A model generated the notes under the pieces. That model did not search any database and was not told where the DNA came from. It saw only the letters and a program-made list of their open reading frames with translations. From an uncultured Candidatus Rokubacteria bacterium (GTDB lineage: Bacteria > Methylomirabilota > Methylomirabilia > Rokubacteriales > CSP1-6), in assembly GCA_963734175.1 (NCBI GenBank), contig CAVTGC010000004.1, positions 7,875 to 71,874 of the forward strand: a DNA stretch of 64,000 bases, given 5' to 3'. The translations under genes and the position numbers were made by a program. Numbering within the stretch: position 1 is the stretch's first letter; each line of letters opens with the position of its first letter. Positions 1-31,747 of this stretch are shown piece by piece.

Positions 1-418
1 CCAGCCGGTCGGGCGCCAGCCCCGCCCGCTCGAGCGCCTCCCAGCTCACCTCCAGCACGAGGCGCTGCTGCGGGTCCATGCTGGCCGCCTCGCGCGGGGA
101 GATCCCGAAGAGCTGCGCGTCGAAGCGGTCGACGCCCTCGAGAAACCCACCGTGGAAGGCCGGCAGCCGACGCCGATCCTCGGGGCTCCACCGGTCGGCC
201 GGCACCTCGGTGACCGCGTCCACCCCGTCGTGCAGCAGCGTCCAGTACTCCTCGGGGCTCGTCACGCCGCCCGGGAACCGGCAGCCGACGCCGACGATGG
301 CGATCGGCTCGCGGCCTCGCCGCTCGGCGGCGTCGAGCTTGGTCTGCATCTCCTCGACGGCGCGCAGCGCCTCGCGCAGGAGCGAGCGACGGTCGGGCGT
401 CGTCGGCTCGTCGCTCAT
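1..418 (-). CDS. Modular type I PKS subunit F, N-terminal fragment (docking helix and start of KS); gene continues beyond left window edge
   Basis: Minus-strand translation from ATG at 418 (ATGA overlap with stop of upstream subunit at 415-417) gives [51 protein letters not shown]...[19 protein letters not shown]. This is a coiled-coil N-terminal docking segment followed by KS N-terminal motifs. The frame stays open to position 1. Confidence 0.8.
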
Positions 419-3400
419 CGCAGGCTCTCGAGCTTCCGGGCCAGGAGCGCGGCCAGCTCGTCCTCGGAGAGATCGTCGGCGTCGCCGTCGGCTGCGCGCG
501 CGGTCGACGGCGCCGGGGCCGGCGGCGGCGCGTCGGGAGCGTCCTCGACGTCGAGGAACCCGGCCAGCGCGACGGCCGTCGGATAGTTGAAGGCCAGCGT
601 GGACGGCAGGTCGCGGCCGACTCCGCGCTCCAAACGGCTGCGCAGGTCGAGCGCCATGAGGGAATCGAGCCCCATGTCGAACAGCCCGCGCTCGGCGTCG
701 ACCTCGGTCAGCGGCAGGCGGAGGACGGCGGCGATCTCCTCGCGCACCCATTCCAGGATCACGTCGTGGCGCGCGCCGGCGGCGACGCCGGTCAATCGCC
801 GGCGCAGGTCACCCTCGGCGGCGGTCGTCGCGACGGCCGGCGCCGGTGCCCCCACCTCGGCCAGGAAGGGGCGGCGGCGGCGCGCCTCGTAGAGCGGCTT
901 GAGGACGGCCCAGTCGATCGCCGCCACCACCGGCTGCACGACGTCGCCGCCGAGGGCGGCGCCGAGGAGATCGAGGGCGGCCGCCGAGGCCATCGGGCGC
1001 AGGCCGGTCTCGGCGAACCGCCGGCGATCCTCGTCCGAGGCGACGCGCATCTCGTCCCAGATGCCCCAGTTCACGCTCACGGCCGGCGCCCCGTCGGCCC
1101 GGCGCGCGTGCGCCACCGCATCGAGGAACTGGTTGGCGGCCGCGTAGGGCGCGAAGCCTGTTGCGCCCAGCAGCGCGGTGGTGGACGAGAACAGCGCGAA
1201 GAAGTCGAGCGGCAGCGCGCGCGTGGCCCGATCGAGCAGGGCGGTGCCGATCACCTTGGGCCGGAGGATCGCGAGCACGCGAGCGAGATCGAGCTCGCGC
1301 ACGGGGGCGGCGTCGAGCGCCGCCGCCGCGTGCACGACGCCGCGCAGCGGCGGCATCGACGCCGCGAGGTCAGCGAAGAGCGCCGCGAGCACCGAGGCGT
1401 CCGCCACGTCGCCGGCCACCACGCGGACCGCGGCGCCGTGCGCCTCGACCGCGCGGACGCCGGCCCGGCGCCGGGCCGTCTCCGCCGGCGCGCCGGCCTC
1501 GAGGCTCTGGCGGCCGAGCAGGACCAGGTGCCGGGCGCCGTGGGCGGCCAGCCACTCGGCCACCTTGAGCCCGAGCCCGCCGAGGCCCCCGGTGACCAGA
1601 TAGGTCGCGTCGCTCCGCAGCACCGGCATCGTCGCCGCCAGCGCCTCGCGACGACGCAGTCGCGCCACCCGGCGGCCGTCCGCGCGGAGCGCCACCTGGT
1701 CCTCGCCGTCGCTCGCGGAGATTTCGTCCACGAGCGCGGCGGCCGGATCGTCTTCGTGCGGATCGAGATCCACCAGCCCGCCCCACAGCTCGGGGTGCTC
1801 GAGCGCGACCACCCGGCCGAAGCCCCACAGCATCGCCGCCGAGCGCCGCCACCGGAGCGCCGGGCTCCGGCACTGCCTGCGCGCCCCTCGTCGCGACCCA
1901 CAGCCGCGTGCGCGAGGCCGCCGGCGAGGCGGCGAGCGCCTGCACGAGGTGCAGGAGACTGCCGACGCCCAGCACCTGGTCCATCTCCAGCGCGCTCTCG
2001 CCTTTCACGTCGGCGTCGAGTCCCCAGCAATGCACGATCCGCCACGACGTCGCGCCGGCCCCGGCCGTGACGACCTGCTCGACGAGCCGCCGGAATCCCT
2101 CGGGATGCCCGGGCCGTACGGTCCACTCGCCCACGCTGTTCGCACCGTCGGCGGCGCCGGCGGAGACGACGACGCATCGCTCACCACGCTGCCGCAGGCG
2201 CTCGGCCACGCGCCGGCCGACGCCGCCACGGTCGGCGAGCACCAGCCAGTCGCCGCCGACATCGCGGCGCGGGGCTCGGGCGAGGACCACGGCCTGGCTG
2301 CCGACCGCGCGCCCGGCGCCCGCCTCGCCGGCCAGGGTGCGAGCGTCGGCGAAGCCCTCCTCGGCCAGCAGCGCGCGCCAGCCGGCGGGCGCCAGCAGCG
2401 GATACGACGGCCGCAGATCGGCGTCGGCGAACCGCCACCAGCCCTCGGTGAGCCCGAACGTGAGGTCGACCCACCGGTACGGCGTGGTGCCCTCGAGCAG
2501 CACGAGCAGGCCGTCCGGCGCGAGCAGGCGGCGAGCGTGGCCGAGCGTGCGGCGAAGGTCCCGGGTGGCGTGGAGCACGTTGGCGGCGACGACGAGGTCG
2601 AAGCCGTGCGCCGCAAAGCCCTGCGCCTCGGGATCGCGCTCGATGTCGAGGCTCCGGCAGGTCAGGGACGGCGTGGCGCGGAATCGCTCGGCGGCCCGGG
2701 CCAGGAACAGCGGCGAGAGATCGGTGAACACGTACTCGGTGCCGGCCGGCAGCGCCTCCAGCAGCGCCGCGGTGGTGGCGCCGGTCCCGGCGCCGATCTC
2801 CAGCACGCGCAGGCGCCGGCCCGCCGGCAACGCGGCCACCGACGTCTCGACGGCGCGGCGGGCCAGCGTGTTGAAGACGCGCGCGACCGGGCCGGCCGCG
2901 TAGAGACGCTCGACCGACTCGAGATCGCCCTGCGGGAACAGCAGCGGGAGCGGATCGGCGCCGCGCAGCACCGACGCCAGCCGCGCCCCGCAGCGATCGA
3001 GCACCGCGAGCTCGGCCGCCGCCGACATGCCGGCGCGCTCGCGCGCCTCGCGCGGCGAGGCGCCGACCAGCGCTCGGCGAACCGTCCAGGTGTCGGGTCG
3101 ACCGTCGACGGCGTCGAGCACGCCGTCCTCGCCCAGCATCGCCAGCATCCGGCCGAGCAGCCGCCGGTGGGCGGGGACGACGCCGAGCTCCGTCGCCAGC
3201 GCGGCCGCCTCGACACTCGAGCCCGGGCGCGGATCCCAGCCGAGCTCGCGCAGCGCCCGCACCGCGTGATCGGTGGCGACGACCTCGAGCGCGGCCAGGG
3301 AGGCATCGTGGGCGTCCAGCGCGTACGCCGCCGCCAGCGTCGCGACCTCGGGCTCGAGGCGCGCGACGATCTCGGCCGGCGCGGCCAGCGCCGGGGCCGC

Positions 3401-30974: not shown

Positions 30975-31747
30975 CGACGGACACTGCCTCCGACCATCGT
31001 CTCGGGGACCGCGGCCAGCTCACGGGCCAGGGCGGCGAGGAGCTCCTCGCGCGCGCTCCGGATGAAGAAGTGCGTGCCGGCGAAACGCGTGAGCGTGAAC
31101 GCCCCCCGCGTCTGGGCTCGCCAGGCGGCCAGCTCCGCCTCGTTCGCAACCGGATCGTCCTCGCCGCCATACACCGAGATCGGGCAGGCCAGCGGCTCCT
31201 CGGCGCGGCACCGGTAGTCCTCGACGAGGGCGAGGTCGGCGCGCAGACAGGGGAGCAGGAGCGCCATGAGGTCCGGATGGCGCAGCACCTCGGTCGGGAC
31301 CCCGTCGTAGCGCGTGCGCAGCTCGTCGAGGAACTCCGCATCCGGCAGGTGCGCGAGCGGAGCGCGCGGATTCGGGAGCTGCGGGGCGCGGTGCCCGGAC
31401 ACGAACAGGTGGGCCGGCGCCGGCGCGCCCTCGGCCCGCAGCCGTCGCGCCAGCTCGAACGCGATGAGCGCTCCCATGCTGTGGCCGAACAGCGCGAACG
31501 GCATGTCGAGATGGGGCCGGAGGACCTGGACGGTGGCGTCCATCATCTCCGCGAATCGGGTATAGGCCGGCTCGCGCAGCCGGTTCTCCCGGCCGGGCAG
31601 CTGGACGGCGCACACATCGACCATCGGCAGCTGTCGGGCCCACGGCATGTACACCGAGCCGCCGCCGCCGGCGTACGGCAGGCAGACCAGGCGGACGCGG
31701 GCCCGCCGATCGCCGCCCGCTCGAAGCAACCACGAGCTCGCGTTCAC
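30971..31747 (-). CDS. Type II (discrete, editing-type) thioesterase, alpha/beta hydrolase
   Basis: 258 aa with LFGHSMGALIAFELARRL (GxSxG nucleophile elbow) and the overall TEII pattern (PYAGGG... N-terminus). GTG start at 31747 with GGGAGG 7 nt upstream. Its stop overlaps the PKS-A start (ATGA). Confidence 0.85.
   Translation of the reverse strand: MNASSWLLRAGGDRRARVRLVCLPYAGGGGSVYMPWARQLPMVDVCAVQLPGRENRLREPAYTRFAEMMDATVQVLRPHLDMPFALFGHSMGALIAFELARRLRAEGAPAPAHLFVSGHRAPQLPNPRAPLAHLPDAEFLDELRTRYDGVPTEVLRHPDLMALLLPCLRADLALVEDYRCRAEEPLACPISVYGGEDDPVANEAELAAWRAQTRGAFTLTRFAGTHFFIRSAREELLAALARELAAVPETMVGGSVRR

Follow-up and report, generated by a model that had tools for sequence, protein, structure and literature searches.

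The question raised by this locus is what its long minus-strand genes make up: a working assembly line or the remains of one, beginning and ending where, and leading to what product. The window (the whole stretch of DNA that was analysed, 64,000 nucleotides of contig CAVTGC010000004.1 from an uncultured Candidatus Rokubacteria bacterium) carries, at 1-31747 on the minus strand, a gene for a type II thioesterase (TEII) followed by genes A-F of a modular type I polyketide synthase (PKS). We consider it likely that this region is the 5' two-thirds of one operon encoding the thioesterase and a colinear PKS with integrated acyltransferases (cis-AT), that it is not decayed, and that it is probably coupled to a nonribosomal peptide synthetase (NRPS). 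The operon is a real but uncharacterised modular PKS from uncultured soil Rokubacteria (Methylomirabilota-type), and its module types are ordinary and known.

Gene order and domain layout

The domain layout was read from Pfam scans of the long minus-strand open reading frames (ORFs), with E-values of 1e-10 to 1e-100 for modules A-E. Domains are ketosynthase (KS), acyltransferase (AT), dehydratase (DH), enoylreductase (ER), ketoreductase (KR), C-methyltransferase (C-MT) and acyl carrier protein (ACP).

30971-31747, minus strand: TEII, discrete type II thioesterase of 258 aa (PF00975, E 3.2e-49)
25617-30974, minus strand: gene A, KS-AT-dead DH-KR-ACP, probably the first module (Pfam, motifs); ~1790 aa over 25613-30974
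19170-25638, minus strand: gene B, KS-AT-DH-ER-KR-ACP, 2155 aa after frame repair
14782-19177, minus strand: gene C, KS-AT-C-MT-ACP, without KR, 1464 aa after repair; C-MT at ~15310-16330
7095-14785, minus strand: gene D, KS-AT-DH-C-MT-ER-KR-ACP, 2562 aa after repair; C-MT at ~9930-11070
415-7098, minus strand: gene E, KS-AT-DH-C-MT-KR-ACP, 2227 aa after repair; C-MT at ~2270-3400
1-418, minus strand: gene F, 5' end only, 139 aa comprising the N-terminal docking helix and the first part of a KS

A sequence-only reading of this DNA had described a thioesterase gene and six colinear PKS genes. Gene order and Pfam agree with it, as they do with the domain orders it gave for modules A-E. What did not stand is that the six genes are open ORFs: seven frame breaks had been overlooked. 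The Pfam domains of gene B were accordingly read on two ORF pieces (21757-25638 and 19170-21905) and those of gene E on three (3472-7755, 1370-3904 and 415-1833).

The thioesterase has the features expected of its type: a discrete PF00975 protein of ~250 aa with a GxSxG nucleophile motif (GHSMG at residue 88), encoded beside the synthase. Its function would be editing; an NCBIfam search of the protein matched no family.

GC content is ~76% in 1-31.7 kb and 66-76% rightward. GC at the third codon position places practically all coding of 1-31.7 kb on the minus strand. No tRNA genes and no Rfam families (gathering threshold) were found in the whole 64-kb window.

Relatives and source

A genome scan with protein D (one genome per GTDB species) gave a single close match, locus L002 (CAWHBD010000001.1), a 3.0-Mb contig of uncultured Candidatus Rokubacteria bacterium isolate MFD02840.bin.3.55. 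Positions 1-26355 of L002 align with window positions 26334-1 at 93.8% nucleotide identity. The remaining genome matches to D were ≤53% identical and came from Chloroflexota, Acidobacteriota, Myxococcota, cyanobacteria and Planctomycetota, with actinomycetes lower down. A further relative is the uncharacterised metagenome cluster Ga0374056_00001323 (JGI 3300037878; loci L001 and L050).

L001 and L002 share with the window the gene order, the domain order, the AT, DH and methyltransferase (MT) motifs of B-F, and the start/stop overlaps. They differ from it in the state of the genes: in L001/L050, B-F are uninterrupted (65-81% aa identity) and L050 also shows a downstream NRPS, whereas L002 has two frame breaks at places other than those of the window. 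The gene F stub of the window is 70% identical to F of L001 (tblastn). For the start of the operon the closest relative is L051, a short-read assembly with an uninterrupted gene A (1790 aa, P0241, 91% identical). The literal gene A ORF of the window, with its tail left unrepaired, has 1785 aa. Comparison with L051 also suggests that the true start of gene B is probably at 25620.

Protein searches gave the same picture. Protein D has orthologues at 72% (P0001) and 70% (P0002) identity, with other proteins reaching ≤54% over the full length and at most 58% across single modules. For F of L001, the orthologue is at 77% (P0122; others ≤57%). For protein A, P0241 is followed by more distant family members at 54-76% and by others at ≤56%. 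The close orthologues (P0001, P0002, P0122 and P0241) are unnamed metagenome proteins, and the best relatives of the PKS proteins in general are metagenomic, acidobacterial, myxobacterial or cyanobacterial.

The statement that the locus matches no named cluster holds in these searches, which returned no near-identical match to a characterised one. The best-scoring named protein was AjuB (P0037; ajudazol PKS of a Cystobacter sp.), with 50% identity over 44% of D. AjuB, too, is part of a multimodular cis-AT PKS, here a myxobacterial one, and it shares the KS-AT-DH-KR core, but its module set is different and it is not orthologous.

CurJ/curacin-type and myxobacterial or cyanobacterial cis-AT modules with embedded C-MTs are also among the closest known systems. 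They share with the window the layouts KS-AT-MT-ACP, KS-AT-DH-MT-KR-ACP and KS-AT-DH-MT-ER-KR-ACP, the use of malonyl ATs plus S-adenosylmethionine (SAM) for methyl branches, CurL-like KS-AT linkers, and the lack of actinomycete-type docking domains. In contrast to the layouts, overall cluster similarity is absent: named PKS reach 40-58% over single modules. The window further differs from these systems in its host phylum and in having three C-MT modules in a row. Four layouts of MT-bearing PKS modules have been catalogued, and all three layouts seen here are among them (PMC2613160).

An actinomycete origin, which the 76% GC had prompted, was ruled out by the genome scan and by the absence of PF08990. 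Equally, the locus is not an actinomycete-type modular PKS (methylmalonyl-driven, with class 1 docking). This was rejected because PF08990 is absent, four of the five ATs carry an xAFH motif, the closest genome is from Rokubacteria and actinomycete matches are ≤43% identical. The non-actinomycete logic proposed earlier is thus borne out by the missing docking family, the best relatives and the Rokubacteria source.

Catalytic motifs and module chemistry

All five complete KS domains (A-E) carry DTAC(S/A)SSL, HGTGT and KTN(I/V)GH, i.e. the Cys-His-His set, and every module from A to E has its own AT (Pfam Acyl_transf_1, E 1e-65 to 1e-92). These are the marks of a cis-AT modular type I PKS; a trans-AT PKS was ruled out by the AT in every module. 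Each of modules A-E ends in an ACP with the serine motif G(L/V)(D/N)SL (GLNSL in gene A).

The AT motifs are GHSMG/VASH in A, GHSVG/YAFH in B and GHS(L/V)G/HAFH in C, D and E (GHSLG/HAFH in gene C). In A, the carboxylate-binding Arg was read 25 residues past the Ser. An xAFH motif marks a malonyl-specific AT and an xASH motif one for alpha-substituted malonyl. The motifs had been given exactly in the sequence-only reading, including the HAFH/YAFH type in four of the five ATs. Its general description, a cis-AT modular PKS with embedded SAM-dependent C-methyltransferases and mostly malonyl-type ATs, is upheld as well.

The DHs of B, D and E keep HxxxGxxxxP and HPALLDAxxQ. In A, ~540 aa between AT and KR gave no Pfam DH match, and the remnant reads HPWLTAHVRP and HPEALGAGLR, with the catalytic Asp changed to Gly; the domain had been called degenerate, and the lost Asp confirms this. 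The degeneration is common to the A orthologues, one of which has deleted the whole region. The KR motifs are LDD in A (B-type), VDD in B, LAD in D and LDA in E. The ERs of B and D keep the NADPH motif LIHAA(T/A)GGVG.

Module chemistry was derived by standard PKS colinearity rules. Module A would add an alpha-substituted malonyl unit (VASH-type) and reduce the beta-keto group to a hydroxyl (B-type KR, dead DH). Module B would add malonate with full reduction. Modules C, D and E would each add malonate and C-methylate it with SAM; C would retain the beta-keto group, D would reduce fully and E would leave a 2-methyl-enoyl unit. Module F, as read from the relatives, would add malonate and leave an enoyl unit. 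The predicted chain is R-CH(OH)-CH(R')-CH2-CH2-CO-CH(Me)-CH2-CH(Me)-CH=C(Me)-CH=CH-CO-S-ACP.

Some points weigh against taking this structure literally. The substrate of the AT in A is ambiguous, as VASH suggests alpha-substituted malonyl but GHSMG is malonyl-like. Module C would leave an alpha-methyl beta-keto unit that is possibly gem-dimethyl, so the count of methylations there may be one or two. Finally, the starter stays an unspecified R.

Methyltransferase domains

An MT domain is present in three of the five complete modules (C, D and E), and Pfam and structure searches confirm the earlier count. When compared with the Protein Data Bank (PDB), the MTs of C and D matched the structure of the CurJ C-MT best (5THY; E 3.7e-62 for C and 7.4e-93 for D), and the C-MTs of DisA, PksCT, AprA (MT2) and LovB came next. 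The MT of E was assigned from Pfam and motifs, the structure comparison having covered C and D.

C and D carry (V/I)(L/I)E(V/I)G(A/G)GTG, ANV(L/V)HAT and (F/L)E(G/V)T, and module C keeps the catalytic His (ANVLHAT) and Glu (AFEGT). In E, a pattern search picked up the first two motifs, and visual inspection the Glu motif (LLEGT). Homology to solved C-MTs that takes in the N-terminal lid, SAM motif I and the His-Glu dyad are the features of a CurJ-type PKS C-methyltransferase.

Whether module C methylates carbon or oxygen matters for the product, since an O-methylated beta-position had been offered as an option. An O-methyltransferase (O-MT) of the StiD/StiE/CurL type was rejected for module C, as there is no O-MT chain among the PDB matches of its MT. 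Every match of known type over the MT domain is a C-MT, and two weaker ones are named only as methyltransferases; CurL and other PKS matches in the same search cover the AT-side linker, not the MT. By homology, then, the module C methyltransferase is a CurJ-type C-MT, and the O-methylated option falls away.

Operon coupling and docking

At TEII/A, B/C, C/D, D/E and E/F, the stop codon of one gene and the start codon of the next lie in an overlap of 4-8 nt. For A and B there is an overlap only after frame repair, and it measures 8 nt when the start of B corresponding to that in L051 (25620) is used.

Genes B-F open with helical N-terminal segments of ~35 aa, and A-E end in acidic tails of the form LS(D/E)(D/E)E...LL. 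Gene A has no N-terminal docking helix, its KS beginning only 16 residues from the start. The helices and tails would fit head-to-tail docking in gene order. Pfam scans of the window ORFs gave no PF08990 (actinomycete-type docking), and a PDB search with the N-terminal 36 aa of D and the C-terminal 40 aa of C returned insignificant designed coiled coils or nothing.

The end of the line

In the relative (L001/L050, P0121), F is a protein of 1860 aa with the order KS-AT(HAFH)-DH-KR-ACP (Pfam, motifs). In L050 it overlaps by 4 nt with an NRPS gene of 3547 aa, of which 3334 aa were read. This NRPS has the order C-A-T-C-A-T-C-A-T-TE (condensation, adenylation, thiolation; terminal thioesterase, TE) and three HHxxxDG motifs, and its N-terminal helix faces the acidic tail of F. 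From this orthologue, the line in the genome of the window probably forms the polyketide part of a PKS-NRPS hybrid. The earlier assumption of a stand-alone PKS is revised on the basis of this coupling.

In such a hybrid, the F-bound chain would be handed on to an NRPS of three modules with a TE at its end. There it would be joined by an amide bond to a tripeptide, giving a methyl-branched acyl tripeptide in linear or cyclised form. The TE could hydrolyse the chain off or cyclise it onto either the module-A hydroxyl or a side-chain amine. The A-domain codes of the L050 NRPS were hand-read on GrsA numbering and serve as leads only: DIWEITGDDK would resemble a diaminobutyrate (Dab) code and DILQLGLIWK would be the canonical Gly code, while the third code (DPRHFGFQAK) was left without assignment.

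Several points weigh against the hybrid. The window ends inside F, and the F domains and the NRPS are read only in a relative. The F-to-NRPS junction is documented in that one relative, which is 72% identical in D. A metagenome scan with the NRPS N-terminus gave no second orthologous F-NRPS junction among 80 loci, in which identity to the window PKS proteins was never above 58%. In the best of these loci (L053; 67% identity in the C domain), the PKS module ahead of the NRPS is of the fully reducing kind and not orthologous (≤58%).

The alternative is a stand-alone PKS from which an acid or a lactone would be released by a PKS-type TE, without a peptide part. We regard this as unlikely, though it has something in its favour: besides the single relative, nothing in the window is peptide-related, and in a survey Rokubacteria commonly have KS domains and rarely many condensation domains (PMC7298704). 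Against it, B-F of the NRPS-bearing relative are orthologues with the same domain order and the same motifs, and the NRPS there is translationally coupled to F, with the N-terminal helix opposite the acidic tail.

Frame breaks

Seven frame breaks cut A-E into 11 ORF pieces, or 12 with the F stub. They were located by tblastn with the L001 proteins and then by base-level alignment to L002:

~25730-25745, gene A: 11-nt deficit
21958, gene B: single extra base (T)
17335, gene C (AT): single extra base
14777 and 14403, gene D: single extra bases
3575, gene E: C5 run read as C4 (one C missing)
1842, gene E: single extra base (T)

By tblastn, the window is colinear with the intact orthologues of L001, with a frame switch in B, C and D and two in E; the B protein of L001 changes frame at 21967-21971. 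The two insertions in D put its first ~125 codons in other frames. The 11-nt deficit puts the C-terminal docking tail of gene A (...DDAELDRLLTEIQGLSDEEVRRQLAN...) out of frame. After the six single-base repairs, B, C, D and E read through with zero internal stops.

L002 is intact at all seven sites and has breaks of its own elsewhere, in B at ~residue 177 (~2109-2131) and in D at ~residue 990 (~14513-14526). Annotation of this biosynthetic gene cluster (BGC) in the L002 record will be fragmented too. From its "MFD...bin" contig_NNN name we take L002 to be a long-read metagenome bin, in which residual indels are expected. The ratio of nonsynonymous to synonymous substitution rates (dN/dS) between window and L002 is 0.09-0.22 in all six genes.

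Genes of the right flank are broken in a similar way:

43213-43996, minus strand: LivF-like ABC ATPase, only profile positions 40-136 in frame; break at ~43760
53777-54628 and 54579-55412, minus strand: methylmalonyl-CoA-mutase-like large subunit split at ~54600, matching Pfam positions 256-512 and 4-253, respectively

The N-terminus of the ATPase is probably in another frame (43751-43996), which would be another single-base break. The methylmalonyl-CoA-mutase-like gene set as a whole spans 53777-56643 (minus strand) and includes a B12-binding subunit (56248-56643) and an alpha/beta hydrolase (55370-56275).

Rather than gene decay, the seven PKS breaks most likely reflect indel errors in the assembly of a long-read metagenome, because the relatives are intact, dN/dS is low and flank genes are broken too. 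Two observations weigh against this. Classic homopolymer errors are not what is mostly seen: at five of the seven sites a single base is inserted outside a homopolymer, and at another the sequence is 11 nt short. Moreover, break density is seven in 31 kb of PKS as compared with two to three in the 32-kb flank, where detection is weaker.

If the breaks were real mutations instead, the cluster would be a decaying pseudogene cluster with zero product. In its favour are the seven frame-disrupting indels in 31 kb, five of them the insertions away from homopolymers, and the 11-nt deficit removes a docking tail of A that is intact in both close relatives, L002 and L051. But none of the breaks is shared with the 94%-identical L002, in-frame stops and large deletions are absent after frame repair, all six genes show the low dN/dS given above, and metabolic and transport genes of the flank are hit as well. 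Decay, which if real would be very recent, is therefore improbable. In practice, literal ORFs from such long-read metagenome-assembled genomes should be repaired against relatives before BGC tools or expression are used in mining.

The start of the line

The flank of L051 is the same as that of the window: a TAXI/NMT1-like gene, an SBP_bac_5 gene on the opposite strand, a small ORF, TEII, A and B. In three relatives that are further removed (59-76% identity in A), the order is TEII-PPTase-A-B-C, with wholly different genes upstream of each. In these, an Sfp-type phosphopantetheinyl transferase (PPTase) gene lies between TEII and A (9300-10004 in L052); the window and L051 are without it, and the PPTase for the at least six ACPs must be encoded elsewhere. 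All A orthologues begin 5-23 residues before the KS.

The start at TEII is thus conserved in four relatives with three kinds of upstream genes. This points to an operon that probably begins at TEII, with A as its first module, in a family that lacks a loading module. The loading function had been supposed to lie outside the window; judged from the relatives, which start at TEII-A without a loader, it is probably not missing. The first KS, with an intact Cys-His-His set and no upstream docking helix, would take its primer either straight from an acyl-CoA or from the AT-loaded unit after decarboxylation.

That a separate nearby system, namely an acyl-CoA synthetase (35907-37451) and a MaoC-like protein (37433-38518), supplies and loads the starter is very unlikely: these are indeed an AMP-binding enzyme and a hot-dog-fold protein on the same strand, 4-7 kb upstream of TEII, but an opposite-strand solute-binding protein gene separates them from the operon, the pair is generic and sits amid genes for transport and catabolism, the scores of the ligase fall well short of all NCBIfam cut-offs, neither a fatty acyl-AMP ligase (FAAL) nor an ACP partner was seen, and upstream of TEII the three more distant relatives carry other genes altogether.

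Compared with the 91%-related L051, in which the gene calls here amount to a single gene of 134 aa, the region 31748-33425 is rich in indels. It holds an ORF at 32532-33425 (298 codons, high GC at the third codon position) that gave no match in Pfam and NCBIfam searches. The region probably combines the promoter/intergenic DNA of the PKS operon with a small gene of low conservation. Further upstream, the TAXI/NMT1-like solute-binding gene (34606-36036) has 2 extra nt at 34868 relative to L051 (1451). Since the two versions are open to approximately the same end, one or other C-terminus must be wrong.

Other observations in the right flank

At 45019-47151 (minus strand), an ORF of 711 codons encodes a LivM-like permease (residues 35-297) and then a periplasmic binding protein, with no intervening stop. 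This second part carries a Met and a signal peptide of its own (MRSAIRCLVAVLLLAAGAPALA). The ORF is either a real fusion or the result of a lost stop codon.

An ankyrin-repeat protein (Pfam Ank_2/Ank, E 1e-23) is encoded at 60982-61569 (minus strand). Ankyrin-repeat proteins are uncommon in free-living bacteria. Its neighbours are genes of the beta-oxidation type (thiolase, 3-hydroxyacyl-CoA dehydrogenase, acyl-CoA dehydrogenase).

Meaning for Rokubacteria and the PKS family

To our knowledge, Rokubacteria have no cultured representative. A literature search for a characterised polyketide or other product from them gave only survey papers, none of which links a product to the phylum. They carry "moderate numbers" of biosynthetic gene clusters (PMC7298704).

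The features of the locus that are mildly unusual are the three consecutive C-MT modules and the loader-less start conserved across the family. The remaining enzymology is standard; the cluster is one of very many orphans, of use in mining the genomes of an uncultured phylum but no surprise to a specialist. A broader reading can be put forward tentatively, with the odds somewhat against it: that there is a conserved family of soil PKS-NRPS systems, so far found only in Rokubacteria-like bacteria, with a loader-less start of the form TEII-(PPTase)-[KS-AT-dead DH-KR-ACP], unusual priming and a new tri-C-methylated keto-dienoyl tripeptide as product.

The loader-less start poses a concrete question on how a PKS is primed. 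Together, the window and its relatives are a nearly complete blueprint (seven or eight genes, with module chemistry, boundaries and repaired proteins) that could be synthesised and expressed heterologously. If the broader reading is true, the product would be the first natural product assignable to the candidate phylum Rokubacteria.

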